Virus record (IMG/VR): IMGVR_UViG_3300027917_000004
Coordinates: 1-59,486 of that record
DNA from: a virus
Taxonomy: Duplodnaviria > Caudoviricetes
DNA length: 59,486 nucleotides
Direction: 5' to 3' (one strand)
Numbering within the stretch: position 1 is the first letter of the stretch; every line of letters starts with the position of its first letter. This document shows, piece by piece, positions 3,297 to 40,840 of the stretch. Both the position numbers and the translations under genes were made by a program. The notes beneath the pieces were generated by a model. The model was not told the DNA's origin and made no database searches. It worked only from the letters and a program-made list of their open reading frames with translations.

Positions 3297-3316
3297 CCAT
3301 GTGAAAAGGGGGTCAC

Positions 3317-4903
3317 ATGCCTACAAGTGATACGAGAGGAAAGGATCAAATCCTTTCTTTTGTCCGCAACCTTAAACATGACCGGATGCTAGACATCGGT
3401 TGTGGTGAAGGCACCTATGCCAAGCTTTTCCCAGAAGCGCATTGGACAGGCGTGGAAATTTGGGAGCCTTATGTTGATGAGTATAAACTCCGCGATCTCT
3501 ATTCTGAACTGCATCTTATGGATGCTCGCAACTGGGATAGTAACGGCCAGCGTTGGGATGTTGCTGTCGCTGGTGATATTCTTGAACATATGACGGAGCA
3601 GGAGGCTTTTCTTCTGGTCCAAAAACTACGCGATTGCGCTGATTGGGTCATCATCAGCATCCCGTTTAACATGCCGCAGGGAGAGTGGTATGGAAACCCC
3701 TATGAAGCCCATGTTAAAGATGACTGGACCCATGAAGAAGTTAAGCGGGTTTTTGGTGACGCAGAATGGTGCTTTATTGATTATCCCATCGGAGCTTATG
3801 CTTTTAAAGGAAAGTCAAAAGAGCGTCTTAAAATTTGCGTTTATGCAATCAGCAAAAACGAAGCCCATTTCGTTCCGCGCTTTTGCGAGTCAGCAAAAGA
3901 AGCAGACCTTATCCTAATTGCAGACACGGGGTCTACAGATGGGTTGCCAGCAGAAGCCGAAAAACATGGCGCAGTGGTTCACCACATTTCTATTACACCT
4001 TGGAGATTTGATCTTGCTAGGAACGCTGCTCTTGCTCTTGTTCCTAGGGATTTTGATGTCTGCATCAGTCTAGACATTGATGAAGTTCTTCAACCCGGCT
4101 GGCGCGAAGAAATCGAACGTGTCTGGATCAAGGGCCACACGACCCGTCTGCGCTATATGTTTGATTGGGGCTGCGGCATTCAATTCTTCTACGAGAAGAT
4201 CCACGCCAAGCATGGTTATATGTGGCACCACCCGTGCCATGAATATCCTGTTCATGATGGTCGGATCAAAGAAAATTGGGCACAGACTGATATGCTTTTG
4301 GCGGTCCATATGCCTGACCCGACAAAATCACGCGGTCAGTATTTGGACTTACTGAAGCTGTCAGTTGAGGAAGACCCAGAATGCCCTCGCAATGCTTTTT
4401 ATTATGCCCGTGAACTTAGTTTTCATGGGGATTGGTGGAAAGCTATTGAAGAGTGCCAACGGTATCTCGCTCTTCCCCGCGCCACATGGATGAACGAACG
4501 GTGCTATGCGTATCGTGTCATGGGGCGGTCTTGGAATGAGCTTGGTCGGTGGGAAGAAGCCGAAAAGGCATTTCAGATGGCAGCGTCAGAGGCACCTAAT
4601 ACCCGCGAACCATGGTGCGAACTGGCCCTTTTGATGTATCGCCAGAGCCGTTGGGAAGAGTCTTTCGCCTATGCCATGCGGGCCTTGCGGATTGCGAATC
4701 GTGAACAGGTCTATACCTGTGATCCAGCAGTTTGGGGTTCTCAACCCCATGATTTGGCTTCTGTTGCCGCATGGCATCTAGGGCTGAAAGATTTAGCTTT
4801 GGAGCAAGCTATGATAGCTTTGAGCCATGATCCTGATGACATTCGTTTACAGAATAATGTAAAATTCATGTCTGGCACAGAGCCTATTAAGGATGCGGCG
4901 TGA
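3317..4903 (+). CDS. SAM-dependent methyltransferase fused to GT2 glycosyltransferase and TPR repeats
   Basis: N-term LDIGCGEG and GDILEH (class I MTase); KICVYAISKNE...ADTGSTDG...RFDLARNAAL...SLDIDE (GT2 DxD); helical TPR-like C-term. Confidence 0.85.
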   Translation: MPTSDTRGKDQILSFVRNLKHDRMLDIGCGEGTYAKLFPEAHWTGVEIWEPYVDEYKLRDLYSELHLMDARNWDSNGQRWDVAVAGDILEHMTEQEAFLLVQKLRDCADWVIISIPFNMPQGEWYGNPYEAHVKDDWTHEEVKRVFGDAEWCFIDYPIGAYAFKGKSKERLKICVYAISKNEAHFVPRFCESAKEADLILIADTGSTDGLPAEAEKHGAVVHHISITPWRFDLARNAALALVPRDFDVCISLDIDEVLQPGWREEIERVWIKGHTTRLRYMFDWGCGIQFFYEKIHAKHGYMWHHPCHEYPVHDGRIKENWAQTDMLLAVHMPDPTKSRGQYLDLLKLSVEEDPECPRNAFYYARELSFHGDWWKAIEECQRYLALPRATWMNERCYAYRVMGRSWNELGRWEEAEKAFQMAASEAPNTREPWCELALLMYRQSRWEESFAYAMRALRIANREQVYTCDPAVWGSQPHDLASVAAWHLGLKDLALEQAMIALSHDPDDIRLQNNVKFMSGTEPIKDAA

Positions 4904-6707: not shown

Positions 6708-7379
6708 ATGACCACAGGCTTGAAGCGATGCTCAAAATGCGGCTTTGAAAAGCCCCATGCTGAGTTTCATCGTTCAACGCGTGGCCTTTATGGTTTGCGG
6801 GGCGACTGCAAAGAATGCCGTTTTGTCAAAAAAGCCACTGAAATTGTGCCCAATGGCATGATGCGCTGTATAAGTTGTAATGAAATCAAAAACATAGAGT
6901 GCTTTTCGCCTAGATCAGATCTTAAAACAAGGCGGACACGCTGCAAAACGTGCATGGCTGATTGGCGTACATCATACTATAAGGCCAACAAAGATCGCTG
7001 CGATGAGCATAAGCGCATTTGGGTTCAGAAAAACCCAGAAAAGCATAAAGCGGTTTGCGCTAAATGGTCCAAAAACAATCGGCCTGTCTTAAATAAACGG
7101 GACTCTGCCAGAAGGGCATTGGAATTGAATTGCCAGCCTTCATGGCTGACATCAATTCATTTAGCCCAAATTCAAGAAATGTATGATGTTGCTTTAGCCA
7201 AAAGTGTTCAAACTGGCATCAGATACGAAGTTGACCATATCCACCCTTTGCAGGGCGATGGCTTTAATGGCCTCCATGTCCCATGGAATTTGCAAGTTGT
7301 GACACTGGCTGAAAACCGTGCTAAATGTAACAAATTCCCGCAGAGTGAGGCTCATTTGCTTTGGAGCTATGAACAATGA
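6708..7379 (+). CDS. HNH homing endonuclease with N-terminal CxxC zinc ribbons
   Basis: Four CxxC pairs; YEVDHIHPLQG...GLHVPWNLQV...NRAKCN. Confidence 0.9.
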   Translation: MTTGLKRCSKCGFEKPHAEFHRSTRGLYGLRGDCKECRFVKKATEIVPNGMMRCISCNEIKNIECFSPRSDLKTRRTRCKTCMADWRTSYYKANKDRCDEHKRIWVQKNPEKHKAVCAKWSKNNRPVLNKRDSARRALELNCQPSWLTSIHLAQIQEMYDVALAKSVQTGIRYEVDHIHPLQGDGFNGLHVPWNLQVVTLAENRAKCNKFPQSEAHLLWSYEQ

Positions 7380-8110
7380 CAACGGGCCTTAGCTTTGATG
7401 GCACCGTAGCTGGAACGACCAGTTACATTAACCAGATTGCCACAATGGCGGTCGTGGAGCCGACCAATGCCGAATTCCTGATTATCCTGCCCCAGATGAT
7501 CACCTATGCGGAAAACCGCATGTACCGTGATCTAGACTTCCTGTTTACCTCTATCGCCACAACTGCCTATGGCATGACAGCTGGCAGCCGCCAGATTTCC
7601 GTGCCAGCGGGGACATTCGTAGTGCCGGAGCAGATCAATGTCCTTGTCGGCTCTAGCGACCCAGATCAAGCAACTCGCGTCCCACTTTTGGCGACAACGA
7701 AAGAGTTTTTGGACGCCGTGTATGGGTCAGGGGCTACGGCTAATCGTGGTCTACCTAAGTATTGGGTTCCTTTTGATGATTATACGTTCCTTGTAGGGCC
7801 GTATCCTGATCAGAGCTATCCATGTGAGATCGTTGGCACTTACCGTCCAGACAGCTTGTCTGCGACCAATAAAACCACGTTCATTAGTTTGTATCTACCT
7901 GATCTCTTCATCATGGCCTCAATGATTTATGTCAGCGCCTACCAGCGCAACTTTGGCCGGATTAATGACGATCCGCAGATGGCTCAAACATATGAGAGCC
8001 AGTATCAAATTCTTCTTAAGAATGCCGATCTGGAAGAAAACAGAAAGAAGTTCGAAGCTGCTGCTTGGTCTTCGCAAGAACCGTCTATCAGCGCCACTCC
8101 GACACGGTGA
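7376..8110 (+). CDS. Tail adaptor / tail tubular-like structural protein
   Basis: ITYAENRMYRDL, GLPKYW, VGPYPDQSY, YLPDLFIMAS pattern; position before nozzle gene. Confidence 0.6.
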   Translation: MTTGLSFDGTVAGTTSYINQIATMAVVEPTNAEFLIILPQMITYAENRMYRDLDFLFTSIATTAYGMTAGSRQISVPAGTFVVPEQINVLVGSSDPDQATRVPLLATTKEFLDAVYGSGATANRGLPKYWVPFDDYTFLVGPYPDQSYPCEIVGTYRPDSLSATNKTTFISLYLPDLFIMASMIYVSAYQRNFGRINDDPQMAQTYESQYQILLKNADLEENRKKFEAAAWSSQEPSISATPTR

Positions 8111-19170: not shown

Positions 19171-20000
19171 TGATTCCGGGGCTGTCTAACGCCTTGTTCC
19201 TGTCGCAAGGGTTCATCGTCGCAACTGGCGGCACGATTACCTTTGACGGCAATTATAAAATTCACACCTTCACTTCGAGCGACAATTTCATTGTCACTTC
19301 GGGTTCTGGGCTTGTCCAATATCTTCTCGTTGGCGGCGGTGGTGGTGGTGGCGCACAAACTGGCGGCGGTGGCGGCGGGGGTGGTTATTTGACGGGTACG
19401 TCACTCGTCTCTCCGCAAACCTATGCTGTAGCTGTGGGCGTTGGTGGTGCGAACGGATATGCGGTCAACACCAGTTTTTGCTACAATGGACAGAACGGCG
19501 GCAACACGACCTTCAATAGCATTCTTGCTTATGGCGGCGGTGGCGGCAGGTCCGCTAACGGAAACACATATGTGAGCGGCGACCTCAACGGTCTGTCAAC
19601 CACCTACGGCGGCTCTGGCGGTGGCGGTAACACTGGAAACAATGTCGCTGGACAGGGTTATGCTGGCGGCACGGCTAGTGGGATTGCTGCGGGCGGCGGC
19701 GGTGCTGGTGCTAATACCACGAATGGCACAGGCGGCGATGGCCTCCAGAGCAGCATTACAGGCACAGCTATCTACTATGCTGGCGGCGGTGGCGGTGGCG
19801 GCTCCAACAACAACGGTACGCAGTACGCTGGTGGACAAGGCGGTGGCGGCACTGGACGCGGCACAGGATCGTCAGGAACGGTTGGCACCAATGGTCTCGG
19901 CGGTGGTGGTGGCGGCGGTGGTCAGAACGGCTCTGGTGGCCTGTATTCTGGCGGCGCAGGTGGTAGCGGTGTTGCCATCATCCGCTACCAGTACAAGTGA
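19170..20000 (+). CDS. Glycine-rich tail-associated protein
   Basis: ATGGTI...YKIHTFTSS, LVGGGGGGG, YYAGGGGG, GGSGVAIIRY. Confidence 0.8.
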   Translation: MIPGLSNALFLSQGFIVATGGTITFDGNYKIHTFTSSDNFIVTSGSGLVQYLLVGGGGGGGAQTGGGGGGGGYLTGTSLVSPQTYAVAVGVGGANGYAVNTSFCYNGQNGGNTTFNSILAYGGGGGRSANGNTYVSGDLNGLSTTYGGSGGGGNTGNNVAGQGYAGGTASGIAAGGGGAGANTTNGTGGDGLQSSITGTAIYYAGGGGGGGSNNNGTQYAGGQGGGGTGRGTGSSGTVGTNGLGGGGGGGGQNGSGGLYSGGAGGSGVAIIRYQYK

Positions 20001-20727
20001 ACAATTCACTGAATAAGCAATCGTTTTTCTCAATCCATTCTGGCGTGATGTCTTTAATGATGTCACGCCAGAACGTCTCGAAGATATGGATAGCGCATGG
20101 GTTCCCCATGATGTCTTTAGCTTCCTGCTTTAGCGCCGGATCAAACATCCAATTCTTCGACAGGTCAAATGGGCAGAAGAACCTATGACTTAGCGGGTTA
20201 TAGTGCGGGTCATAGAAAGGGTCGTGGGTCATTTCATATGGCACGACCACGCCGCCGTAAGCCCACACAGGATTGCTCATTGCCTCCGGCATACGCTCTA
20301 ACCAACCTTTAATGAACTCATTGCCGGGTGGCGTTGCCATGAAGGCATTGCAGATCGACTCGCAAAACGCCGTCTCCCAACAGAACGACAAGATGGTATC
20401 GTCATACGGTTTAAATTGCCGCAGCGAGATCATGTCGGTATCCATGTAGATTCCGCCATGCTCATAGAGGATTTGAAGGCGCATCACATCAGACACATAT
20501 TGAGGCCAAACGATATCAGACCCGCCAATATGGGTTGGAATATCGCACTTTATTTTTGTGACAAATGGCAAAGGAACGCTGCTAGGCGCGTTTGTCCAAA
20601 TGACAACTTCATGGTCTGGGTAGGTGCTTATTGCCGTCTTAACAGCAAGTGTATTTACGATAGACCACGGGCGTGTCTTTTCAGTCCACGGATAAATGAA
20701 GTGAATTTTTTTAGGTATTTCAGTCAT
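19978..20727 (-). CDS. DxD glycosyltransferase (GT32/Gly_transf_sug-like)
   Basis: IPKKIHFI, SDVMRLQILYEHGGIYMDTD, NAFM. Confidence 0.88.
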   Translation of the reverse strand: MTEIPKKIHFIYPWTEKTRPWSIVNTLAVKTAISTYPDHEVVIWTNAPSSVPLPFVTKIKCDIPTHIGGSDIVWPQYVSDVMRLQILYEHGGIYMDTDMISLRQFKPYDDTILSFCWETAFCESICNAFMATPPGNEFIKGWLERMPEAMSNPVWAYGGVVVPYEMTHDPFYDPHYNPLSHRFFCPFDLSKNWMFDPALKQEAKDIMGNPCAIHIFETFWRDIIKDITPEWIEKNDCLFSELFTCTGSG

Positions 20728-28866: not shown

Positions 28867-29056
28867 TCGCAGAACGTCTGATAGCCATGGCACAATGCAA
28901 TATGATTCACATAAACCACGGCTCGCGACACTCAAACAAATCCGGTTTGAAAACCGCATTCGAGAAACTTTGATCGATGCTGATAGCAAAAGAGCAAAAG
29001 CTAGAGTTTCATTGCCTAAATTCAGCTGGGACAAAGACGATGGGAAAGAGGTCTGA
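28850..29056 (+). CDS. Hypothetical basic protein
   Basis: GAGGAG RBS; ends VSLPKFSW. Confidence 0.5.
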   Translation: MAKYRNRRTSDSHGTMQYDSHKPRLATLKQIRFENRIRETLIDADSKRAKARVSLPKFSWDKDDGKEV

Positions 29057-29561
29057 CTTCACCCGTCGAAAGATGGATTTCTACGCGACCCCCGAATCAG
29101 CTGTGCGGCCCTTGCTGCCGCATATTCCCAAAGGGACCATCTATTGCGAGCCGTGCGCTGGAGAGGGTGACCTGATAGGCCACCTTCTGGCTCTGGGCGG
29201 CCATCACTGCATAGCCGCCTATGATGCCGAAATAGGGCCGTGGAAGAGGATCGATGCTTCTTGGCTAATGGAGGATGATCTCAGTGGCGCGGAGATGATT
29301 ATCACCAACCCGCCATGGGACAGGCCCGTCCTTCACCAGATCATAGAACGCTGCGCCCTGCTGCGGCCTACATGGCTGCTCTTCGATGCGGATTGGATGC
29401 ACACCGCTCAAGCCGCGCCACATTTGGAAATCTGCAAAATGATCGTTGCGATAGGGCGGGTGAAATGGTTTGGCGATACTAGCGGCAAAGACAACTGCTG
29501 CTGGTATCTCTTCGATGCCGCAGGATCGCCCCACAGGCCAGTTTTTGTAGGTAGGGCATGA
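29040..29561 (+). CDS. DNA amino-(N6-adenine/N4-cytosine) methyltransferase
   Basis: DFYATP, EPCAGEGDL (motif I), IITNPPW (motif IV). Confidence 0.85.
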   Translation: MGKRSDFTRRKMDFYATPESAVRPLLPHIPKGTIYCEPCAGEGDLIGHLLALGGHHCIAAYDAEIGPWKRIDASWLMEDDLSGAEMIITNPPWDRPVLHQIIERCALLRPTWLLFDADWMHTAQAAPHLEICKMIVAIGRVKWFGDTSGKDNCCWYLFDAAGSPHRPVFVGRA

Positions 29562-30293: not shown

Positions 30294-30566
30294 ATGTCGT
30301 TTCAAGCTATGGCTTGGGCCATCCGTCAAAAAGCACCGACTAAACCAAAATTCGTTTTGTTGGTCCTCGCCAACTACGCAGACCCGAAAGGCGTAGCTTG
30401 GCCGTCCCTAAAGGTGCTGGAGCAAGATACTGGGATCAAGCGGTCCACGCTGATCACCAGCATCGCAACGCTTGTGAAGCTTGGGCTGCTCACCAAGGCA
30501 AAGCGGTATCGCGGGAACCTCAAAACGTCCAACATTTACCAGCTTGAAATGGCCGAAACCTCGTAG
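30294..30566 (+). CDS. Replication-initiator-type winged HTH protein (N-terminal domain only)
   Basis: MSFQAMAWA...KFVLLVLANYAD..G.AWPS...L...GLL...SNIYQL. Confidence 0.8.
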   Translation: MSFQAMAWAIRQKAPTKPKFVLLVLANYADPKGVAWPSLKVLEQDTGIKRSTLITSIATLVKLGLLTKAKRYRGNLKTSNIYQLEMAETS

Positions 30567-30708
30567 TCCAGAATCTGGACTTACCGTGGTTCAAAACTTG
30601 GACCCTATACAGTCATACCAGAAACTATCATCCAACACTTGGAATATCCGAGCCAAGAGAGGAATGATTCTAGTTAGAGTGAGTAGGTTAAACCGTTACG
30701 GAGCCGAA

Positions 30709-32211
30709 ATGGATTTACGCGATTATCAAACTGACGCTATCGACAAACTGCGTGACAGCCTCCGCGCTGGAAAGACCCGTCCCGTGGTGCAAATGCCTAC
30801 GGGAGCGGGCAAGACCATTGTGGCCGCTAACATCGTCCGAATGGCCTTGGACAAGGGCAAGCGGGTTGTGTTCTGCGTCCCTGCCATCAGCCTGATCGAC
30901 CAGAGCGTTGAGAAGTTCGAGCGCAATGGCATCCCGCATATCGGGGTGATCCAAGCCCAGCATGAGCGGACTGACCGGACAGCACCTGTACAGGTCTGTT
31001 CGATCCAGACACTGGCGCGGAGGCATCTCCCAGAGGGTGATCTGGTGATCATCGATGAGTGCCACCTGATGTTTAAATTTTACGATATCTGGATGAACTT
31101 GCCTGAGTGGCAAAAGGTTCCCTTTATCGGGCTGACTGCGACCCCATGGGCCAAGGGCATGGGCGCACAGGGGCGGTGGGATGATTTAATTATTGGCACG
31201 ACAACCGATGAGCTTATTAAACTCGGCCACCTGTCCGATTTTAAGGTTTTCGCGCCAGCGCATCCCGATCTGGATGGGGTCAAGATCGTCGCGGGTGACT
31301 ACAAGCTCGACCAGCTGGGTCAGGCGATGGACAAGGCCCCCTTGGTTGCCGACATCGTCTCGACATGGCTGGAACGGGGCCAAGATCGCTCGACGCTGGT
31401 CTTCGCTGTCAATCGCGCCCATGCCAAGAACATCGAAAAGCAATTCCAAGAAGCGGGCGTGACTACCGCTTATCTGGATGCCTACACCGATCTGGAAGAA
31501 CGAAACCAGATCGCGAAGGCGTTCGAGGCGGGTGACGTTCGGGTGGTCTGCAACGTGGGGGTTTTGACCACGGGGGTCGATTGGGACGTTCGGTGCATCG
31601 TTCTGGCGCGTCCGACTCGATCCGAAATCCTCTACACCCAAATCATTGGCCGTGGTCTGCGGACGGCGGAGGGGAAGGACTATTGCCTGATCCTCGACCA
31701 CAGTGACACCACCCTTAAGCTCGGGTTCGTGACCGATATCAGCCACGACAAGCTCGACAATGGACGGGTCAAAAGCTCGCCCAAGGAAAAGAAACAGCTG
31801 CTTCCCAAGGAATGCCCCAAGTGCGCTTTCCTCAAGCCGCCCAAGACCAAGGTCTGCCCGTCCTGCGGGTTCGAGGCCATTGCGGTTTCGGATATCGACA
31901 CGGAAGAGGGCGAGCTTCATGAGATCACCCGTGACGGGCGGGTGAAGGTTGAAAAATGGCCGCAGGAGCAAAAAGAATATTTTTATCGTGAGCTTCTGGG
32001 TTACGCGGAATTAAAAAGCTACAAAAAGGGCTGGGCCTATCACGCTTATCGGGCGCGGTTTTCTGTCGGTCCTGCTAATTCTTTTTCCGGTAGTCCGTTG
32101 CGAATGATCCGGCCCGAAACCGCGTCTTGGATTAAATCTTATAATATCCGAAAGGCTAAGGCGCGTGAAAAGGCGGCTGGGGCTAGGTTTGACGCAAGGC
32201 ATCCAGACTGA
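30709..32211 (+). CDS. SF2 (DEAD/H-like) helicase with C-terminal zinc ribbon
   Basis: LRDYQ, MPTGAGKT, IIDECH, GLTATP, LTTGVD, QIIGRGLR, CPKC/CPSC; GGAG RBS before ATG 30709. Confidence 0.93.
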   Translation: MDLRDYQTDAIDKLRDSLRAGKTRPVVQMPTGAGKTIVAANIVRMALDKGKRVVFCVPAISLIDQSVEKFERNGIPHIGVIQAQHERTDRTAPVQVCSIQTLARRHLPEGDLVIIDECHLMFKFYDIWMNLPEWQKVPFIGLTATPWAKGMGAQGRWDDLIIGTTTDELIKLGHLSDFKVFAPAHPDLDGVKIVAGDYKLDQLGQAMDKAPLVADIVSTWLERGQDRSTLVFAVNRAHAKNIEKQFQEAGVTTAYLDAYTDLEERNQIAKAFEAGDVRVVCNVGVLTTGVDWDVRCIVLARPTRSEILYTQIIGRGLRTAEGKDYCLILDHSDTTLKLGFVTDISHDKLDNGRVKSSPKEKKQLLPKECPKCAFLKPPKTKVCPSCGFEAIAVSDIDTEEGELHEITRDGRVKVEKWPQEQKEYFYRELLGYAELKSYKKGWAYHAYRARFSVGPANSFSGSPLRMIRPETASWIKSYNIRKAKAREKAAGARFDARHPD

Positions 32212-32221: not shown

Positions 32222-32416
32222 ATGAGCTACGGCCAATATATGCTTTCACGCGCTCCAAATAGTATCAGCGCGGGAGAAACGTCCGGCGTTTTTTTAGTCA
32301 TGCCAAGTTTCTATTCCGATAGCGGGATTATTTACGCCCGTGAAGGTTCGATGGCTGCCAACCCTGATCGCGCCCTTTACCGCGTCCGTTTTCGTCTGAA
32401 GGATAAAACCAAGTGA
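32222..32416 (+). CDS. Hypothetical protein
   Basis: GAGGGGG RBS; coupled to primase. Confidence 0.5.
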   Translation: MSYGQYMLSRAPNSISAGETSGVFLVMPSFYSDSGIIYAREGSMAANPDRALYRVRFRLKDKTK

Positions 32417-33354
32417 CAGCCCCGCGTGAATTAGCCAAAGGCCATTGGGCAACCCTGCTACCGGCCCTTGGGGTCGATAGCCGCTTTCTGGTCAATCGGC
32501 ATGGCCCGTGCCCGATCTGCGGCGGGGCTGACCGATTCCGGTGGGATAACCAGCACGACGAGGGCGGCTACATCTGCGGCCAGTGCGGCGGCGGGGATGG
32601 GTTCGATCTGGCGCGGAAGGTAACGGGCCAGCCGTTCGGGGCCATCTTGGGCAAGATCGAAGAATTGCTCGGCAAGAAGCTCGACAGCACCCCGACCGAT
32701 AACCGTGGGGAAGAGTACCGCGTTAGAACGGCCATGGAATCGATCTGGCGGGGGTCTACACGGCCAACTGCACATGATCCGCTAGGGGTATACCTGACGC
32801 ACCGCCTTGGCCGTTTCTGGGCTTTTACGGGGCTGCGCTACAACCCCAGCGTCTGGCACTATGAGGCCAAGGCCCGTTTCCCTGCCATGGTGACACAAAT
32901 TGTCACCCCAGAGGGTCGAGCGGTTAACCTTCACCTCACCTATCTGCGGCCTGACGGGTTCAAGGCCGATCTGGAAAAGGCCAAGATGGTCATGGCTGCC
33001 AAGCTACCGGACGGGTGCGCCATCAGGCTGGGGCCGGAGCGGGAAAAGATGGGGGTCGCGGAAGGTATCGAAACCGCCCTTAGCGCGGCCATCCTTTTCA
33101 AGATGCCCGTCTGGGCTTGCGTAAATGGCAATTTGCTCGCCAAGTGGCAGCCGCCGGAGATAGCCAAGGAGATCGTGATTTTTGGCGATAACGACGAGAA
33201 TTTCACGGGTCAGGCCAAGGCCTACCACCTCGCCAACCGCCTAGAGGTGCAATTTAAGCGCAAGGCCTTTGTCATGATCCCGCCCCATGCGGGGCAGGAT
33301 TGGAATGACCATTTGCGAGCGGTATCAGGCCACGGGCTGCGGGTTATTAAATAG
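32413..33354 (+). CDS. DNA primase (P4-alpha-type zinc finger plus TOPRIM)
   Basis: HGPCPICGGADRFR, CGQCG.GDG, AEGIETALS, FGDND, DWND. Confidence 0.9.
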   Translation: MTAPRELAKGHWATLLPALGVDSRFLVNRHGPCPICGGADRFRWDNQHDEGGYICGQCGGGDGFDLARKVTGQPFGAILGKIEELLGKKLDSTPTDNRGEEYRVRTAMESIWRGSTRPTAHDPLGVYLTHRLGRFWAFTGLRYNPSVWHYEAKARFPAMVTQIVTPEGRAVNLHLTYLRPDGFKADLEKAKMVMAAKLPDGCAIRLGPEREKMGVAEGIETALSAAILFKMPVWACVNGNLLAKWQPPEIAKEIVIFGDNDENFTGQAKAYHLANRLEVQFKRKAFVMIPPHAGQDWNDHLRAVSGHGLRVIK

Positions 33355-33361
33355 CCCGCGC

Positions 33362-33631
33362 CTAATTTGCTTTTTTCTTTTTCTTTTTTGCTTCGGTGAA
33401 AATCAGCTTTCCTGTGGTTTTAATATAATCATTTATTGTGGCGGCTTGGTTTTCGTTGCGCTCGCGTAGTTCTTCGACCTCTTTTTGAATTTCCATTAAT
33501 TCTTTTAATTTAGCCTCCGCCCTCCAAAAATCGTATTGGGCATTGATTAAATCTTCGCTTTTCCGGTGCAATTGATCGATGAGCAGCTGCATAAATTCTT
33601 CTTCAAAGTCCTCGGGGATTTCGACCAGCAT
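33362..33631 (-). CDS. Hypothetical coiled-coil protein
   Basis: GGAG RBS; last gene of leftward early operon. Confidence 0.6.
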   Translation of the reverse strand: MLVEIPEDFEEEFMQLLIDQLHRKSEDLINAQYDFWRAEAKLKELMEIQKEVEELRERNENQAATINDYIKTTGKLIFTEAKKKKKKAN

Positions 33632-33643
33632 GATTTGTCTCCT

Positions 33644-33928
33644 TCATTGGTATTGCGAGAAAATAAACTCTTTTGCGGTCTCTAGGGCGTAGCAATGCTT
33701 AACCTCGCCATGAATTGAGACCGCCCTATATTTCGGGCCGTCCGGCATGGGTTTGGTAATTTTATTCAGCCACCCCATAACCGCCCCGTCACGGGTGAGG
33801 GTAATTACCCCCTCCTCTAGGCTGGTGCATATAGCGTTAATTCGGGTTACGGGTTCGAGCTTGGGCTTGGGCTTTTTTTCGTCCAAAACGATTCCCAGCA
33901 TATTAGCTAAATCTCGCGGCATATCCAT
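33644..33928 (-). CDS. Hypothetical protein
   Basis: GGAGGGG RBS. Confidence 0.6.
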   Translation of the reverse strand: MDMPRDLANMLGIVLDEKKPKPKLEPVTRINAICTSLEEGVITLTRDGAVMGWLNKITKPMPDGPKYRAVSIHGEVKHCYALETAKEFIFSQYQ

Positions 33929-34046
33929 TAGTGGCCCCTCCTTTTAGGTCTAGACGGCAAACAAAGCAGAAAGATGAAACCGAAAAATAGCGCGGCACCG
34001 ATTAATAAAAGCTTAAACAGCGCGGCGAGTCCTGTAATTAAATCTT

Positions 34047-34241
34047 TCACCCTGTTTGCCCCATGTCTTGAATTTCATTTATCGCGCACTCGAATGTTTC
34101 ATTTTCTACGAGGGCGTCTAATCGCTCATAAGGGTCGAGGCTGAAAAAGTGTTTTTCGATCTCCTCGAAGGTCTCTAAATCCGTTTCAATTTCATAAATT
34201 GAAAAGGTTACGTTTCGAAGGTGAATCCGTTTCCTAGCCAT
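34047..34241 (-). CDS. Hypothetical small acidic protein
   Basis: Start MARKRIHL after GGGGGG; Glu/Asp-rich. Confidence 0.5.
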   Translation of the reverse strand: MARKRIHLRNVTFSIYEIETDLETFEEIEKHFFSLDPYERLDALVENETFECAINEIQDMGQTG

Positions 34242-34242
34242 T

Positions 34243-34497
34243 TTATGCCCCCCAGCTTGCAACGTAATTATCCCCATCGAAAAGCACCGCTTCGATAGTG
34301 CCGGAAGCACCCGCCACCGCTAGGGCCGTTTGAATCGCTTGCATTGCATCGCATAGGGCCCCGCCATAAAACCCCCAGCGTTCGACCTCTGAATCGTGGG
34401 CGGGGGCCTCGCAAATCTTTACCGCCCCCGCTTCTTTCGCCTTGGCATAGGTTTCGAACTTAACCGAATTATAAAAGTGAAGCGTCAAATCAGACAT
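34243..34497 (-). CDS. Hypothetical protein
   Basis: AAGGAG RBS, coupled. Confidence 0.6.
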   Translation of the reverse strand: MSDLTLHFYNSVKFETYAKAKEAGAVKICEAPAHDSEVERWGFYGGALCDAMQAIQTALAVAGASGTIEAVLFDGDNYVASWGA

Positions 34498-34723
34498 AGC
34501 TGGACTCCTTTGTTAGATATTTAGCGGGCACCTGATAAAAATCGGTTGGGCTATCTCGGAACGGGTCAAGATTGCGGGTGATCCCGAATAGTTCCCCGTT
34601 TTTTAGTTTCCAGTGAATCGTATACCCCGCCGCGTTGTCGTATCTTGCAACGGGGTACGGGTGAACGTCTAAAGCTTGGTCATAGATGATTTTGTAAAAT
34701 TCGGCTTTATTGGTCAGTCTCAT
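34490..34723 (-). CDS. Hypothetical protein
   Basis: AGGGGG RBS. Confidence 0.55.
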   Translation of the reverse strand: MRLTNKAEFYKIIYDQALDVHPYPVARYDNAAGYTIHWKLKNGELFGITRNLDPFRDSPTDFYQVPAKYLTKESSYV

Positions 34724-34735
34724 TTTAGCCCCCTA

Positions 34736-35479
34736 TTATGCCGCGACCTTGCGGGCGTGATTTTCTCCGGCCCCGTGGGCCTCAATAACGATAGATTTAC
34801 CCTTGGCGCTATTACCCTTGCACAACCCGCAATCGGTACATTGAACCCCCTTGTTAGAGGGGCAAACAATCTCGGACCCCTTAACAATCTCGGACTCGGA
34901 ATTGACTAGGCGGAACGTACGGCGACCCAAGGCCCAAGCGGCTCGGGCTTGCTCGGCGCTTTCGACTGATTGCATAAACCAAGCGGGGTTAGCGGAGGCC
35001 TTGGGGTTTTCGAATTGGTGCGAATAGCCTGTCCACCCCTTAGCGCGGCTCAAAAGGCTTTCCCAAATGTAGCTAGGCACGGCGGCGGGGTCGCCATAGG
35101 TTCCGGCTCGGACCATTTTACCCGCGCCAAGGGCCGCGATTGCGTCATGGCCGCTAACCGTAGGGTAGCCGCCCCGTTGCAAGTGTTTCCAAGTGATAAG
35201 AACGCCTTGCCCGATGTTAACATAGCACCCGCGCCCGATTGCCAGCTTACCCTTTTCGGGGTTAGGCGTGCCGCGCAAGGGGCAATTGCCGCAAATAGAA
35301 TAATCGGCGCCCGTACGGTTAGCCTCACGCGGGTCGATATCGTCGCGCAGGATATAGGTTTGCACCATAAGGCCCGTTTTACGGTTGCGGGCGGAAAGAA
35401 CGGCGACAACGGCAATCGGTTGGCCGTCTAACAATGAAGGGCCGCGATAAATCACGGCGCTTTGCACAAGCTTAGTCAT
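34736..35479 (-). CDS. Cys-rich conserved phage early protein (putative metal/Fe-S binding, Gp88-like)
   Basis: NRKTG, CGNCP, CYV, GTYGDP, TGYSH, CP...CTDCGLC, AHG. Confidence 0.6.
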   Translation of the reverse strand: MTKLVQSAVIYRGPSLLDGQPIAVVAVLSARNRKTGLMVQTYILRDDIDPREANRTGADYSICGNCPLRGTPNPEKGKLAIGRGCYVNIGQGVLITWKHLQRGGYPTVSGHDAIAALGAGKMVRAGTYGDPAAVPSYIWESLLSRAKGWTGYSHQFENPKASANPAWFMQSVESAEQARAAWALGRRTFRLVNSESEIVKGSEIVCPSNKGVQCTDCGLCKGNSAKGKSIVIEAHGAGENHARKVAA

Positions 35480-35513
35480 AGCGTTACCCCTAGAAAATAA
35501 ATCAGCGTGAACC

Positions 35514-35585
35514 TTATAGCATGGCGACCCGCCACAGTATATTATACTAAAGTCGTACGACTAAAGTCTAATGGCAATCCGCCAC
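35514..35585. promoter_or_regulatory. Early control element copy A: leftward extended -10, two operators and a 22-bp box
   Basis: TTATAGCATGGC (minus strand TGCTATAA); ATGGCG-ACC-CGCCAC 35521; ACTAAAGTCGTACGACTAAAGT 35546-35567; ATGGCA-ATC-CGCCAC 35571. Confidence 0.7.
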
Positions 35586-35794
35586 AAGATAGGCTATAAC
35601 TTAAATCACGCGCCGAGGTTGCCCGAGGCTAGTAGGAATGGCACCCTATGAATGAAGCCGGATAGCTCCGACAATAAAAGCCCCAAGCCTAGGTTAGGCC
35701 GTTATGGCGGTTGCGTTAGTCTGATTTGGTGAGGGGTAACCCTAAGAAGCAAATCAGGCCCGCCAATTAATTCTAGCTGATAGGGGTTAAGACA

Positions 35795-36205
35795 ATGGAA
35801 TATGCTACACTTAAAGAGAAAATCGCCGCCGAAAAGGTTGCCCGTGCGGAACGTCATTCCAATTATGAAACCGTCTTTAATAAGGCCTTGGCCGAGGGCT
35901 TGCTTGCGGGTCAAAACGCGCAACCCCGCGCCATGAAAATTACCGACTCCTTTACGGGTCAGACATGGGTCGAAGAGTCCGGCTTGTGCGGTTTCGCTTG
36001 GGTTATTGTAAAGGCCGCTAACAAGGGGTTCGGCCATTGGTTGCTTAAATCGGGCCGCGCTCGCAAGTCTTACTACGGCGGGGCCGAGATTTGGGTTAGC
36101 GAATTCGGCCAAAGCTATGAACGCAAGGCCGCAATGGCTAGCGCAATGGCTACGGTTTTTAATGACGCGGGTTTCGATAGCTACGCGGGGTCGCGGTTAG
36201 ACTAA
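35795..36205 (+). CDS. Conserved phage hypothetical protein
   Basis: GLCGFAWV...GQSYERK.A.A.A....SRLD; AGGGG RBS. Confidence 0.75.
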   Translation: MEYATLKEKIAAEKVARAERHSNYETVFNKALAEGLLAGQNAQPRAMKITDSFTGQTWVEESGLCGFAWVIVKAANKGFGHWLLKSGRARKSYYGGAEIWVSEFGQSYERKAAMASAMATVFNDAGFDSYAGSRLD

Positions 36206-36317
36206 AGGTTAACTAAGAAGCAAAAACCCCAATCAAACAGCAAAAACTAGGGGCCCCCTAAAAAGGGCCTTTTCTTTTTGCCGCCAATGGGTTAGATTGT
36301 TTCTAGAGGGGTTTTCA

Positions 36318-36506
36318 ATGTCTGATTCTTGGGTTTTTCCGGCGGTTGCTTTTGGCGCGATTGTAGGTTTTCCGGCCCTAGTTATTGCTTGGGCCTTGGC
36401 GCTTTCCTATTATGAGCGGGCAAAGGCCTTGCGGGTTCGCGATAACATGGGGCCCGATGCATGGGGGTCGCAAGATATCGACCCGCGCTTTAGGGGTAGC
36501 CGATGA
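36318..36506 (+). CDS. Small membrane protein
   Basis: GAGGGG RBS, one TM helix, coupled to TerS. Confidence 0.5.
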   Translation: MSDSWVFPAVAFGAIVGFPALVIAWALALSYYERAKALRVRDNMGPDAWGSQDIDPRFRGSR

Positions 36507-37186
36507 CCGGAAAGCTAGAGACGTTAGAGACAATGGAATCTCTCCCGTTGCCTAAAGAGACAAGGGCGGAAAAGCGGGAGCGGGTTAGCCGAGAGACTTT
36601 GGCCGAGCAAAGGATAGCGATTGCCGAGGGAGAGGCTAGGGCCGAGCAAGGTATAGCTTTGGCGCGACAAGCCGGAAGGCCTTCGACCTATGACCCTAAC
36701 AAGGCAATGGAAATATGCACCCGAATAGCTTTAGGGCAATCTCTCTCTAGCATATGCAAGCAAGAGGGGTTTCCTTGTGAGGCTACGGTTATGAAATGGT
36801 TCAATGACAATCCGCCATTCGTAAAGAGTTACGCCCGAGCGAGGGAGTTACAGGCGGACTCCCTATTCGACTCCATCATCGATATAGCCGATGACACTAG
36901 TCGGGACATAATCACCTTGCCCCCAGAAGAGGGAGAGGGAGGGAATGGCAAGACGGTTTTGAACCCCGTAGCGGTTAGTCGCGCCAAGGTCCGAATAGAT
37001 GCAAGATTCCGGTTATGCGGAAAGCTTAATCCGAAGAAGTACGGCGACAAGCTAGAGGCGTATATATCGGGGCCGGATGGCGGACCTATCGAAACAACGG
37101 TTATTCCGGCGGACCGGTTAGACCGGAACGCAAGAGACCGGCTTAGAGAGATATTGGCAACGGCGAAGGATATTACGCCGGAATAG
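36503..37186 (+). CDS. terS: Terminase small subunit
   Basis: GRPSTY...ICTRIALGQSL..IC...P...TV.KW...YARARE.QAD...IADD...PKKYGDK...GPDGGPI. Confidence 0.9.
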   Translation: MTGKLETLETMESLPLPKETRAEKRERVSRETLAEQRIAIAEGEARAEQGIALARQAGRPSTYDPNKAMEICTRIALGQSLSSICKQEGFPCEATVMKWFNDNPPFVKSYARARELQADSLFDSIIDIADDTSRDIITLPPEEGEGGNGKTVLNPVAVSRAKVRIDARFRLCGKLNPKKYGDKLEAYISGPDGGPIETTVIPADRLDRNARDRLREILATAKDITPE

Positions 37187-37220
37187 AAAAAGGCCGGAAG
37201 GTTTCCCCTCCGGCCCTTTG
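37187..37220. terminator. Bidirectional intrinsic terminator
   Basis: AAAAA-GGCCGGA...TCCGGCC-CTTT between convergent genes. Confidence 0.7.
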
Positions 37221-37222
37221 GT

Positions 37223-37579
37223 TCACGCGGCGCTGTTTGCGTATCGGTCTTTAAAGAATTGCCCCGCCCATTGGTTATTCGCTTTGAAGTCTGAACCCTC
37301 TGGGAGGTGAGCATAAGACCTAATCCGGCTCCGGCCATTGGTATAGCTATCCTTTATCGGAGGCCTTTGTTCACCCCGAGAAAGAAGCGTAGCCAAATAA
37401 ATCGGAGCATCACAATCTTCTTCGAGGTAAACCGAGGTTACCCCGCTTGCGTCCGTTCTTGCGTAGCTACAACCGGAAAAGTCTTTTTCCCAGCTAAGGC
37501 CTACGCGGGAAAGTTCCGAGACCGGAACCTTTAGCCAAGCGTGTGAGGGGTCCGAATAGAGTGTAAGCGTCTTAGTCAT
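37223..37579 (-). CDS. Conserved phage early protein
   Basis: SDPSHAWLKVP...SY...YLEEDCDA...S.IRSY. Confidence 0.7.
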   Translation of the reverse strand: MTKTLTLYSDPSHAWLKVPVSELSRVGLSWEKDFSGCSYARTDASGVTSVYLEEDCDAPIYLATLLSRGEQRPPIKDSYTNGRSRIRSYAHLPEGSDFKANNQWAGQFFKDRYANSAA

Positions 37580-37632
37580 TAGTCTAATCCTTATGAGATA
37601 GAGAAAAGGCGGGGTTGCCCCCGCCCATATTG

Positions 37633-37872
37633 TTAAACGCGGCCCCCGCCTTCTCCGGTAAGCATGTCCAATAGATCAAAAGCATCTTTATAGATGATTA
37701 AGTGTTTTTCTATCGGCCCGAACTTAGCCCGTTGCCAGCTGGGGGTATCTTCCTGATATTCCGACTCAATGGCCGTCAATTGCTCTTGTACCGCCTTGCG
37801 GGTTTTACCTATGAGCGAATAGCACTTGCTATCGTCTAACCGTTCGGCGGCCCAGTAAATCAGCTTTGGCAT
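37633..37872 (-). CDS. Hypothetical protein, first gene of leftward early unit
   Basis: AAAGGG RBS; followed by GGCGGGG-GCAA-CCCCGCC-TTTT terminator on the minus strand. Confidence 0.6.
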   Translation of the reverse strand: MPKLIYWAAERLDDSKCYSLIGKTRKAVQEQLTAIESEYQEDTPSWQRAKFGPIEKHLIIYKDAFDLLDMLTGEGGGRV

Positions 37873-37966
37873 TGTGTTAACCCTTTCTTAACGTAGGAAC
37901 GGCTCGCACCCGTCTAGGTTGCCCCAGCGGGTTGGCGAGTCGTTCACTTATCAAACAGCATGTTCT

Positions 37967-38035
37967 TTATAGCATGGCCTATGGCAAATTGCCATATAGC
38001 AATTAGTCTTAAGACTAAAGTCGTACGACTAAAGT
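37967..38035. promoter_or_regulatory. Early control element copy B
   Basis: TTATAGCATGGC 37967; ATGGCA-AAT-TGCCAT 37981; ACTAAAGTCGTACGACTAAAGT 38014-38035. Confidence 0.7.
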
Positions 38036-38040
38036 ATAAG

Positions 38041-38180
38041 CCGGTCTTTACCGGTAATCGCCGCCCCGCGCCGCGCCCCGCTTGGCCGCAGTCTTTACCG
38101 GTAATCATTGCCGGTAATCTTTATGGTTAACGCCGCGCCGCTTGGCCGTAATGTTTACAGGTAAACTTTTCCGGTAATCG
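38041..38180. repeat. Degenerate repeats with about 60-bp period (CCGGTAATC / CTTGGCCG)
   Basis: CCGGTAATC at 38051, 38098, 38111, 38171; CTTGGCCG at 38081, 38141. Confidence 0.8.
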
Positions 38181-38298
38181 CGCCCGCCTCTCAAGGTACC
38201 CCGCAGCACCCCCCGCCACCCCCTAAAATGAAGGAGCATATGAGAAGGGGAATGGGCCAATCTCCAAAACGTCACACGCTTATTTTTTGAAACTCTTT

Positions 38299-38526
38299 AT
38301 GGGTCCCCTTTTCGGGGGTGGGGGTACCTGTTTCACATGAAACATGGGTCCCCTTTTTGATACCCCGGGTATACCGCTATATATGCGGATGCCTCCTATG
38401 GGTCCCCTGATGGCTTGTCGCGCCAAAAAATGGGCCACCGCAGCATCCCGCGATGACCCTGATTGTATCCGAAACCCCAAAAGGAACCACCCGTTTTGGT
38501 TATTTTGATTATAGCACGGGTCCCCT
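38299..38526. repeat. GGGTCCCCT boxes (x4) upstream of terL; candidate packaging/terminus signals
   Basis: GGGTCCCCT at 38301, 38346, 38400, 38518. Confidence 0.65.
38329..38344. promoter_or_regulatory. parS: parS-like centromere site
   Basis: TGTTTCACATGAAACA, 15/16 match to consensus TGTTTCACGTGAAACA, in non-coding DNA. Confidence 0.7.
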
Positions 38527-38585
38527 TAAAGGGTAGGGGTACAGGGATTAGATTATGGTATAAGGTTGGTTAGAGGGGTGGGGTA

Positions 38586-40361
38586 ATGCGCGTACTATCG
38601 ATTGATAATCAGAAGATTGATTACGAAAAGCAGCTGCTTGAATTGGATCGGGCTGACTGCGAGGAGAGCTTGTACGAGTTTTTGAAGAATTCGTGGAAGT
38701 ACATTGACAGTGTGCCGTTTACGGATGGATGGCCGATTGAAGCTGTAGCCGAACATCTTGAGGCTGTGGCGCGAGGTCAGATACGCCGTTTGATTATTAA
38801 CATTCCGCCTCGTTGCGCCAAGTCCTCGCTGACTTCTGTTGCGTTTCCGGCTTGGGTCTGGGCGCAGTCGCAGCGGGGCCCGACGATTGGACCGGGTACG
38901 CAATTCCTTCATGCCTCCTATGCCCAGCAGCTTTCTCTCAGAGACAGCGTGAAATGCCGCCGCCTGATTGAAAGCCCGTGGTATCGGAAGCTTTGGGGTG
39001 ACCGGTTTAGGTTAACGAGTGATCAGAACACAAAGTCGAGGTTTGATAATGACAAAGGCGGCTCAAGGCTCTCAACCTCCGTTGGCTCGGCCCTCACGGG
39101 TGAAGGCGGTCATATCATCGTGGTCGATGACCCGAATGCTGCACAGGAAGCCTTCTCGGAAGCCACCATTGCATCTACCATTGAGTGGTGGGATGCGGCT
39201 CTTTCCACCCGCTTGAATGATCCCAAGACTGGCGCGTTTGTTGTTATTCAGCAGAGGCTCAGTGAAGAGGATTTGACCGGCCACATTACGTCCAAAGACG
39301 AAGGCGAGTGGACGCATTTGTGTCTGCCGATGAAGTATGAGTGGCAGCGTCATTCTTATACAACTTTGGGCTATGACGAGAACGGTGATGAGATCGTCTG
39401 GAACGACCCGCGTGGGTGCGTCGAGGATGAAGACACGGGTGAATTAGTCCCGCTTGTTGAAGTGAATGATGACGGTGAACGCATTGCGATCTCGCCGGAA
39501 GCCCAAGAGGTTCTGGAGGAGGAGCGTGAAGGATCGCTGCTTTGGGAAGAGCGTTTCGGGATTGAGGAAGTCAATATTCTGGAGAAGCAACTTGGTCCTT
39601 GGGCCGCTGCGGGTCAGCTGCAACAAAGGCCGGAACCCAAGGGCGGTGGTATTATCAAGTCGGATTGGTGGCAAGTTTGGCAGGAACCGGAATATCCGCC
39701 AATGGATTATATCATTGCCTCTCTCGACACTGCCTACACTACTAAAACGGAAAACGACTTCTCTGCGATGACTGTTTGGGGCGTGTTTACCAAGTCTGCG
39801 ACAGCCCAGATCACCCGCTCTGTGGCGCGGCATGGTGGACTTATGTCCCATATCGAAGTGACCCGTGACTACGTTGATAAGCAAAGCCCGAAAGTCATGA
39901 TGATGTATGCATGGCAAGCAAGGCTTGAGCTTCATGAATTGGTCGAAAAGGTAGCCGAAAGTTGTAGGAAGATGAAAGTTGATAAGCTTATCATCGAAAA
40001 CAAAGCCGCTGGTTACTCTATTGCCCAAGAACTTCGTCGCCTTTACGGCCATGAAAACTTTGCCGTGCAGCTGGTTGACCCCAAAGGTCAGGACAAGCTT
40101 TCACGCCTGTATTCAGTCCAGCATTTGTTCGCAGAAGGTATGATCTTCGCGCCAGTCAGAGGCTGGGCCGATATGGTCATCCAACAGGTTGGTACCTTCC
40201 CCAAAGGCAAACACGACGACTTGGTCGATACTGTCTCGCAGTCGATCCGTCATTTGCGCGATCTGAACTTGCTGGTGAGGGCGCCGGAACTGATCCACGA
40301 TGTGGAAGACAGCATGGCATTCCGCTCACAAAAAGAGGATGTGCCTCTTTACCCGATCTGA
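38586..40361 (+). CDS. terL: Terminase large subunit
   Basis: INIPPRCAKS (Walker A), IVVDDP (Walker B), QQR, GQLQQRP, SLDTAY, IENKAAG, HDDLVD. Confidence 0.96.
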   Translation: MRVLSIDNQKIDYEKQLLELDRADCEESLYEFLKNSWKYIDSVPFTDGWPIEAVAEHLEAVARGQIRRLIINIPPRCAKSSLTSVAFPAWVWAQSQRGPTIGPGTQFLHASYAQQLSLRDSVKCRRLIESPWYRKLWGDRFRLTSDQNTKSRFDNDKGGSRLSTSVGSALTGEGGHIIVVDDPNAAQEAFSEATIASTIEWWDAALSTRLNDPKTGAFVVIQQRLSEEDLTGHITSKDEGEWTHLCLPMKYEWQRHSYTTLGYDENGDEIVWNDPRGCVEDEDTGELVPLVEVNDDGERIAISPEAQEVLEEEREGSLLWEERFGIEEVNILEKQLGPWAAAGQLQQRPEPKGGGIIKSDWWQVWQEPEYPPMDYIIASLDTAYTTKTENDFSAMTVWGVFTKSATAQITRSVARHGGLMSHIEVTRDYVDKQSPKVMMMYAWQARLELHELVEKVAESCRKMKVDKLIIENKAAGYSIAQELRRLYGHENFAVQLVDPKGQDKLSRLYSVQHLFAEGMIFAPVRGWADMVIQQVGTFPKGKHDDLVDTVSQSIRHLRDLNLLVRAPELIHDVEDSMAFRSQKEDVPLYPI

Positions 40362-40387: not shown

Positions 40388-40464
40388 CCGGGTGTAGCGC
40401 AGTCTGGTAGCGTGGCTGATTTGGAGTCAGTAGGTCGCATGTTCGAATCATGCCACCCGGACCA
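40388..40464 (+). tRNA. tRNA-Pro(UGG)
   Basis: CCGGGTG/CACCCGG acceptor + ACCA; GCTGA-TTTGGAG-TCAGT anticodon arm; GCATG-TTCGAAT-CATGC T arm. Confidence 0.9.
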
Positions 40465-40483
40465 CATCTCTGAGGGGGGATAC

Positions 40484-40840
40484 ATGGACAATTTAGATAA
40501 ACCGCTTGAGGAAATGGAACTTAGGCAACGGACAACGAACGCTCTTATCCAAGCCGGATATAAAACATTGCGCGATGTTGTGGTTGCTAAACAGTCTGAA
40601 ATTAAAAAAATACCCGGACTTGGCAGCAAATCATTTGACGAAATTAGAGAAGTGATAATGTTCTATGGTTATCACTTTGATATGCAAATTTTAAAATCAG
40701 CCAACCATTATCAGTCTTATGAAAAAGCCCTTCAAGAAATTGAAAGGCTGGAAAAACTTTTGGAACAACGCGACTCCTTCATCATTTACAACAATTTATG
40801 GGATGATTTTGTCGCATCACTAAAGGAGAAAGCACAATGA
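40484..40840 (+). CDS. RNA polymerase alpha C-terminal-domain-like protein
   Basis: PLEEMELRQRTTNALIQAGYKTLRDVV...EIKKIPGLGSKSFDEI parallels alpha-CTD; GAGGGGG RBS. Confidence 0.8.
   Translation: MDNLDKPLEEMELRQRTTNALIQAGYKTLRDVVVAKQSEIKKIPGLGSKSFDEIREVIMFYGYHFDMQILKSANHYQSYEKALQEIERLEKLLEQRDSFIIYNNLWDDFVASLKEKAQ

Follow-up and report, generated by a model that had tools for sequence, protein, structure and literature searches.

A sharply bounded CWG-poor island around the small terminase gene of a tailed phage

In the genome of a tailed phage (Duplodnaviria; Caudoviricetes; IMG/VR record IMGVR_UViG_3300027917_000004), which was analysed as a single complete contig of 59,486 bp and is called the window below, about 5 kb of DNA between the genes for the primase and the large terminase (terL) are depleted of the trinucleotide CAG/CTG (CWG, counted on both strands). 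The block carries the small terminase gene (terS), a gene of the DUF7227 (GP88-like) family and a series of small open reading frames (ORFs). The depletion is real, is not explained by codons, amino acids or GC content, and has, judging from relatives, been maintained over long divergence. As to its cause, we tentatively favour the maintained local avoidance of an activity that reads CWG at the DNA level, in a module that would be repressor-controlled and is probably early.

Extent of the depletion and compositional controls

The change points of the likelihood scan, 33421 and 38400 (Table 1), match almost exactly the block of about 5 kb that a preliminary description had placed at 33400..38400 from the letters alone. 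Between them, CWG occurs at 9.6 per kb compared to 33.3 per kb outside, and across 33360–38580 there are 54 occurrences where the remainder of the genome predicts 194.6 (0.28-fold). The k-mer observed/expected scan proposed in that description covered 32 strand-symmetric trinucleotides in 109 windows of 5 kb. Among these 3,488 tests, the strongest depletion is that of CWG at 33501–38500 (51 vs 185.9, z = −9.9), and the top enrichments, CCC/GGG and CTA/TAG, lie in the same window. CWG is lowest over terS and the gene upstream of it and intermediate across the leftward small ORFs at 33362–34723. Within terS (36503–37186), CAG occurs twice (36851 and 36924) and CTG never, which reproduces the original count.

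Further words are shifted in the island. CTA/TAG is 2.12-fold and CTAG 4.0-fold enriched, in keeping with the frequent TAG/CTA-type words reported before, CA/TG stands at 0.62-fold, TA at 1.52-fold and CCCC/GGGG at 4-fold. The loss of CAG/CTG and of GATC was correctly described, yet the signature is wider than these two words.

GC content is not lowered in the island (0.511 inside, 0.505 outside). The CWG depletion extends to every codon frame (frame-1 CTG, for instance, at 0.76 per kb vs 12.96 in other genes) and, when read on the sense strand, to CAG (z = −4.1) as well as CTG (z = −5.8). The spacers are depleted too, with 19 CWG in 1,347 nt (14.1 per kb) compared to 72 in 2,702 nt (26.6 per kb) elsewhere. 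When synonymous codons were shuffled 500 times within each island gene, such that the protein and the island's own codon usage were kept, 79.3 CWG were expected in the island genes and 37 observed (z = −7.75), a value reached by 0/500 shuffles; using the codons as other genes do raises the expectation to 130.0. No trinucleotide is lower than CWG in this null model, and a matched set of seven other genes gave no such signal. Because the depletion affects both strands, all frames and the spacers and was never reproduced by shuffling, it is not a matter of codon usage. The earlier view that the bias is positional rather than codon-driven, and that it includes terS, therefore withstood the control for amino acids and GC content on which it had been made to depend.

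These controls bear on a neutral explanation, according to which weakly expressed early genes with relaxed, non-host-adapted codon or dinucleotide usage, or a regional mutation bias, lost CWG without any target being involved. The island indeed favours the codons GGG, CTA, ATA and CGA, which are rare in other genes, uses GCT, GGT and CGT less, and lacks the low TA, CTAG and GANTC seen elsewhere in the genome; that early and late phage genes can differ in their codon usage is on record (PMC5683454). Nevertheless, CWG stays depleted when amino acids and the island's own codon usage are held fixed, and the spacers and the strand symmetry point the same way, so that we regard a neutral by-product as unlikely. 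Decay of 5-methylcytosine (C-to-T) was rejected, as TTG/CAA is not raised (0.84-fold) and GC is not lowered. A general CA-to-TA shift is weakened as an explanation, being found at codon junctions in the window's lineage only and not in relatives.

GATC adds a second, more restricted loss. Sites at 34580, 37674 and 38646 confirm the reported absence between about 34583 and 37673, with one more site up to 38645. The resulting 3,094-bp gap is the longest of 246, and a maximum gap of this length has a Poisson estimate of 0.0007 before correction for 16 palindromes. The island has 4 GATC compared to 13.6 expected from the synonymous shuffle (z = −3.6, 0/500) and 13.4 from a Markov model, whereas GATC outside the island is unremarkable (243 vs 248.5 expected), as is the frequency of CWG there. 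GATC is not depleted in the island genes of the diverged relatives L083, L082 and L197, and its loss is specific to the window's lineage. Elsewhere in the window, a GGCC-free stretch of 2,507 bp (316–2823) inside the first gene (1,091 aa) has the same Poisson maximum-gap estimate, 0.0007, and is as unusual as the GATC gap.

Relatives and the question of import

Relatives were searched for the same island, as the preliminary description had advised. Within the lineage of the window, three short contigs (L001, L002 and L090; 67–90% nucleotide identity) keep it and are CWG-normal from terL on. It was also found at the same place in three more distant lineages, L083, L082 and L197, whose TerL proteins are about 70–71% identical to that of the window (blastp); for L082 and L083, identity at the DNA level is about 68–69%. 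The DUF7227 protein is 59–60% identical in L082 and L083, and L197 carries a GP88-type gene there (PF17338, 7.6e-32). All three share the order primase, leftward small genes, GP88/DUF7227, rightward small genes and Sf6-type terS.

CWG densities in the islands of L083, L082 and L197 are 5.4, 11.6 and 11.0 per kb, compared to 37.0, 35.7 and 33.8 per kb outside, and the synonymous-shuffle z scores are −6.6, −4.8 and −4.2 for island genes but +2.1, +1.6 and −0.2 for flank genes. No other word is consistently low across the four lineages: CWG has ratios of 0.26, 0.15, 0.32 and 0.33 and the runner-up a geometric mean of 0.56, and each of the seven lowest tetramers across the four contains CWG. This specificity, while other shifts vary between lineages, again argues against a neutral by-product. 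Among 46 TerL-related loci, 11 have at least one upstream 1-kb bin with ≤17 CWG; all 11 have TerL identities of at least 60%, and several are near-duplicates. The trait goes with position and not with the gene: a homologue of p136, one of the small island proteins, is encoded by a CWG-poor gene in L197, in inverted orientation there, whereas in L091 and L099 the homologue is not CWG-poor. On this comparative evidence, the island has been maintained over a long divergence. As a separate observation, GANTC (GAGTC, GATTC), CTAG, CGCG and AATT are 2–4 times commoner in the islands of the window, L083, L082 and L197 than in their flanks; these words are avoided by the remainder of each genome and not by its island.

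Whether the island was imported can be judged against the avoidance that marks the entire genome. CCWGG is absent from it (0 vs 96–109 expected), and 19 palindromic hexamers, including GGCGCC, TGGCCA, CGCGCG, TCCGGA, CGGCCG, CTGCAG and CGATCG, have genome-wide observed/expected ratios of ≤0.25. This looks like strong avoidance of Type II-style sites, the usual mark of unmodified phage DNA that is exposed to Type II restriction. The island takes part in it, with 4 occurrences of the avoided hexamers where 33.7 are expected (18 control windows: 0–5 vs 17–36), and the other 45 palindromes are not avoided in it.

A foreign donor with the same genome-wide bias, which the preliminary description had named as a finding that would overturn it, did not come to light. 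Megablast of the island against phages gave no match, and blastn gave one weak 5% match (phage CRP-403) and none in plasmids. Among 160 terS or DUF7227 loci, none was CWG-low at comparable GC content except loci with the same island (L001/L081, L002 and L090); L082 and L083, which also belong to this set, are CWG-low in local islands. Since the island shares the avoidance of the 19 hexamers and no donor was found, it has been subject to the pressures that act on the whole genome and carries an additional local avoidance. A test for amelioration agrees, as the signature is undecayed in lineages with TerL about 70% identical (DUF7227 59–60% in L082 and L083). The island is not a recent import.

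That it is a foreign cassette which retains the signature of its donor is thus very unlikely, even though its composition is atypical and its edges are sharp in L083. Its proteins are also more diverged than the backbone (terS 30–38% identical in the diverged relatives compared to 70–71% for TerL). In addition, a contig from sequencing run X3, a co-occurring relative, matches the window to the right of 38136 and is unrelated to it further left; this suggests a junction within the repeat segment and hints at mosaic exchange at the island's edge. Set against this are the shared avoidance of the same 19 hexamers but not of the other 45 palindromes, the persistence of the signature across saturating divergence and the missing donor.

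Module anatomy and genome setting

The two leftward transcription units of the module are each preceded by one of two near-identical segments of about 90 bp (35497–35590 and 37950–38040; Table 1). AGTC-N4-GACT palindromes occur three times in the genome, always within these duplicated segments (35546–35567; 38005–38035), and 0/100 shuffles reached this number. Their confinement to the two leftward promoters suggests that the module has its own repressor-type control, with the palindromes as putative operators predicted from sequence.

Table 1. Features of the CWG-poor island and its surroundings (coordinates of the window)
Feature	Position	Strand	Remarks
CWG-poor island	33421..38400	.	Maximum-likelihood change points (two-rate likelihood scan); between primase and terL genes
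GATC-free stretch	34584..37673	.	Longest GATC gap in the genome
Five small leftward ORFs (89, 94, 87, 84, 77 aa)	33362..34723	-	No family match; own ORF picks
DUF7227 (GP88-like) protein	34736..35479	-	Seven invariant Cys; PF23872 5e-07, phrog_2554 1e-62; first gene of the long leftward operon
Promoter/operator copy 1 (putative)	35497..35590	-	Operator palindrome AGTCGTACGACT at 35551-35562; sigma-70-like hexamers TAGACT-18-TATAAT, minus strand
p136	35795..36205	+	Widespread phage protein of no characterised function, 147 relatives
p69, small hydrophobic ORF	36297..36506	+	Overlaps terS start
Small terminase terS, Sf6 gp1 type	36503..37186	+	PF20901 6.1e-36; PDB 3hef/4dyc ~1e-25 (3hef 1.2e-25)
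Short leftward operon: p79 (37633-37872) and p118 (37223-37579)	37223..37872	-	No family match
Promoter/operator copy 2 (putative)	37950..38040	-	Operators AGTCTTAAGACT (38005-38016) and AGTCGTACGACT (38019-38030)
Right-edge repeat segment	38044..38411	.	Two direct-repeat arrays and parS-like word, upstream of terL
Cro-like regulator	~26 kb		PHROG/Pfam scans
RusA and amino-methyltransferase (NPPW motif)	methyltransferase 28977-29561		PHROG/Pfam scans
Helicase	30481-32211		PHROG/Pfam scans
Primase (Zn-ribbon, DUF7146, Toprim_3)	32413..33354	+	Pfam and PHROG; left flank, CWG normal
Large terminase (terL)	38586..40361	+	phrog_38 at 8e-85; right flank, CWG normal

At the right edge, the first repeat array (38044–38179) consists of four copies of (T)TTACCGGTAATC-like words (TTTACCGGTAATC-like) and the second (38299–38411) of three copies of ATGGGTCCCCTTTT; both could be binding sites for terminase or other proteins. 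The only parS-like word of the window, TGTTTCACATGAAACA at 38329–38344, has a single, central mismatch to the 16-bp palindrome TGTTTCACGTGAAACA, which we take to be the chromosomal ParB-binding parS consensus; with ≤3 mismatches allowed, matches arise in 26/100 shuffles. With the change point at 38400, the bias does end at the repeat/parS segment, as first described. Exact copies of TGTTTCACGTGAAACA lie between terS and terL in L082 (four, 6913–7845), L083 (four, 2256–3594), L164 (three, 1648–2529) and L171 (one, 1916–1931), meaning that relatives in this phage clade carry clusters of host-type parS sites. In L082 and L083, the clusters start 250–600 bp past the right edge of the island (hand-converted coordinates), in CWG-normal leftward genes between terS and terL. 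No integrase or ParB was found among the 60 ORFs scanned, and ParB was not searched for beyond those. The 1.4 kb that separate terS from terL in the window hold two leftward genes and the repeats; in the distant relative MW202675.1, terS abuts terL.

The DUF7227 protein passes the Pfam gathering score (PF23872, 30 bits vs a cut-off of 27), and its family is linked to GP88 (PF17338) in the Atlas. An alignment shows its invariant cysteines to be C63, C66, C85, C206, C214, C217 and C220. The predicted fold is alpha/beta barrel-like (pLDDT 85.8); Foldseek returned no match to the model with E ≤ 0.001, and the best matches by VIA-align were radical-SAM enzymes (PFL-activating enzyme, QueE), with Z scores of 4.4–2.6. 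This weak resemblance is a lead rather than a result, and searching the literature by the family name DUF7227 found nothing. The predicted fold of p136 (pLDDT 95) had no PDB match by Foldseek. The nine small ORFs of the island had no match in Pfam, PHROGs or NCBIfam (PADLOC, which holds defence and not anti-defence models, was not searched), so that their earlier designation as anti-defence candidates stays a guess.

DUF7227 genes are of unusual composition in other phages as well. In 29 other phage loci, they are atypical in many words and hold less CWG than predicted from their proteins and genomes, with a median z score of −1.8, and 12/29 fall below −2 compared to 1/110 control genes, as would be expected if CWG loss were a neutral by-product of early genes. 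A CWG target bound to the DUF7227 gene itself was considered and is weakened by the pooled genes of these loci, in which GAG and CTC are lower still than CAG and CTG.

As to the wider setting, the ORFs were our own picks (greedy longest ORFs) rather than gene-finder calls, and scans of 60 of them against Pfam and PHROGs showed the gene content of a tailed phage, with regulator, replication, terminase, portal, capsid and tail genes, the last three groups downstream of terL. The first 99 bases of the window recur at its end; this overlap indicates a circular assembly with an arbitrary start. Directly after terL, a 142-aa protein (40412–40840, plus strand) resembles the C-terminal domain of the RNA polymerase alpha subunit (PF03118, 3e-14). 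Two glycosyltransferase-type genes are present, one at 3317–4903 (plus strand) fused to a methyltransferase domain and TPR repeats and one at 19978–20727 (minus strand) with a DXD sugar-binding region.

The closest TerL proteins of characterised phages are only about 30–46% identical. A first TerL search of genome contigs gave no match, and a TerL profile search of such contigs gave binned phage contigs and distant prophages only, the near relatives lying in metagenome bins of inconsistent taxonomy; no host can be named from these matches. PDB sequence searches with the methyltransferase, the DUF7227 protein and TerL gave no usable match.

Candidate causes and comparison with known systems

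The preliminary description took the island to be the end of the chromosome that enters the cell first, purged of words targeted by host restriction or defence for the time before its small early proteins come into action. We consider this strict form rather improbable, although several observations fit. In the window, the island adjoins the repeat-rich segment directly upstream of terL. In 35/35 mycobacteriophage and Gordonia phage rows among the matches listed (60), DUF7227/GP88 homologues lie on the minus strand, 1.2–3.6 kb from the right end and pointing inward, in records that presumably start at mapped ends. In S2B, a T7-like Caulobacter phage with annotated terminal repeats of 259 bp, the homologue comes third when genes are counted from the early end. 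At their leading ends, S2B (22–28 vs 40 CWG per kb) and CRP-118 (15–23 vs 33 per kb) are mildly CWG-poor. Furthermore, target avoidance in only part of a genome has experimental precedent: PMC12455610 describes it for Murciavirus/Autographiviridae facing the Type I system Mme2I, for the first-step-transfer DNA of T5 and for the leading regions of conjugative plasmids.

Other observations do not fit a strict leading end. L082, L083 and L197 have 1.5–2 kb of CWG-normal leftward genes (27–47 per kb) between island and terL, the CWG minimum lies over terS and not at the edge, and the right end of Che12 showed no CWG depletion. Data on physical ends came from assembled contigs, in all six sequencing runs listed, and for the four runs compared with the window no pile-ups of starts or ends were reported. 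In successive 1-kb bins of distance to terL, about 10, 11, 9, 9–10 and 1 contig ends were counted by hand, with no enrichment beside terL, and no unitig of doubled depth was found within 30–44 kb. The window and its relative G002 are two independent circular assemblies with overlaps of exactly 99 bp, which is k-mer-sized; together with the Sf6-type terS, this weakly favours headful packaging. Under headful packaging, there is no unique first-entering end and an argument from the leading end is inapplicable (PMC12455610). Overall, the claim is partly supported: the end-proximal position of GP88/DUF7227 elsewhere is circumstantial evidence for an early region near an end and ties the family to early regions at chromosome ends. 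As for the stripping of host restriction words, the same 3-mer recurs where TerL is about 70% identical, which would not be expected of restriction specificities that change fast, and the loss of GATC is not shared.

A constraint on the DNA as a substrate would need no defence at all. It might stem from a nearby packaging or partition site (terS, pac, parS) or from replication starting at the primase, for example as a zone without primase start sites. We know of no packaging or ParB function that reads a 3-mer over 3–5 kb, and the window has a single, degenerate parS word. On the other hand, the minimum is centred on terS and the genes upstream of it in every lineage, the exact parS clusters of L082 and L083 begin shortly past the right edge, and the left edge adjoins the primase gene. 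The DnaG of gamma-proteobacteria begins primers at d(CTG), but the same source reports d(CTA) as a second start site (PMC2978363). As CTA/TAG is enriched 2.1-fold in the island, the idea of avoided CTG starts is weak, and a substrate constraint of either kind seems to us distinctly unlikely.

The reading that we tentatively prefer, local avoidance of a CWG-reading activity, has two tiers. In the first, the whole genome, island included, avoids CCWGG and the 19 palindromic hexamers. In the second, the module alone also avoids CWG; here, the depletion is observed, and its cause is what we infer. The island would be a position-bound, selectively maintained purge of the double-stranded word CWG, to which the lineage of the window would have added GATC. 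The module would comprise the leftward GP88/DUF7227 operon, the rightward p136-p69-terS operon and the short leftward operon, with the leftward units sharing a promoter/operator. As long as an activity that reads CWG is operating, the DNA of the module would have to stay intact or readable, before protection reaches the remaining genome or independently of such protection. The activity may belong to a host defence or to some module-linked factor, and the module may matter as the first DNA to enter the cell or as the first to be expressed.

Several points weigh against this reading. A limited literature search (methyltransferase/recognition sequence) found no bacterial system that reads bare CWG. 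Restriction specificities change fast, which makes a single 3-mer shared across lineages odd for a host defence. That the module is probably early is argued from the position of the family in other phages. L231, L232 and L235, contigs from genome bins with TerL 63–68% identical, have no CWG-poor island. The CWG sites that remain turn over only slightly faster than other words (13/27 conserved in L001, 8/16 and 2/9 in two further comparisons, vs fractions of 0.68, 0.57 and 0.36 for other 3-mers), a difference too small to decide the matter. Finally, the pooled DUF7227 genes of the 29 other loci are lower in GAG (0.57) and CTC (0.44) than in CAG (0.74) and CTG (0.70), pointing outside the clade to a general oddity of early genes rather than a CWG target, and part of the CWG signal may be a codon oddity of this kind.

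A related possibility, which we rate as quite unlikely, is a conserved activity of the phage clade or its hosts that reads CWG on double-stranded or transiently single-stranded DNA and for which the module is a 'blind spot'. Such an activity might be a nuclease with a short motif, a modification enzyme or a preference in primer starts, and the Fe-S-type GP88/DUF7227 protein, which each of the four islands encodes, could contribute to it.

Work on restriction avoidance has mostly dealt with full recognition sites scored over whole genomes. The present case is a sharply bounded purge of a three-letter word, evidently maintained in evolution, in addition to the ordinary avoidance of palindromes. 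Should the cause be a defence or some other activity that reads DNA, the island marks the phage DNA that must survive first, and CWG offers a handle on the agent. A neutral cause would be a warning that modules of early genes can mimic target avoidance even after codon usage has been controlled for.

Compared with known systems, the genome-wide avoidance of Type II sites in phages is present here as well (no CCWGG where about 100 are expected, and the 19 hexamers), and the island is included in it; yet such avoidance does not explain the local purge of a word that is not a hexamer, with CWG and GATC normal outside. Compositional islands and early–late codon differences share with this case an atypical codon and k-mer usage confined to an early-type gene block, but here the depletion survives codon control, reaches the spacers, is kept in relatives and is accompanied by the palindrome avoidance of the whole genome. 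There is also a likeness to T5, Murciavirus and plasmid leading regions, where avoidance is also local and the avoided words are common elsewhere in the same genome. As in such first-injected regions, the island holds small ORFs without family match together with a family found at the leading end of other phages. It differs from them in that its word is a bare 3-mer rather than a full recognition site and is conserved across diverged lineages, that a late gene, terS, sits at the minimum, and that some observations run counter to fixed ends and a fixed order of entry.

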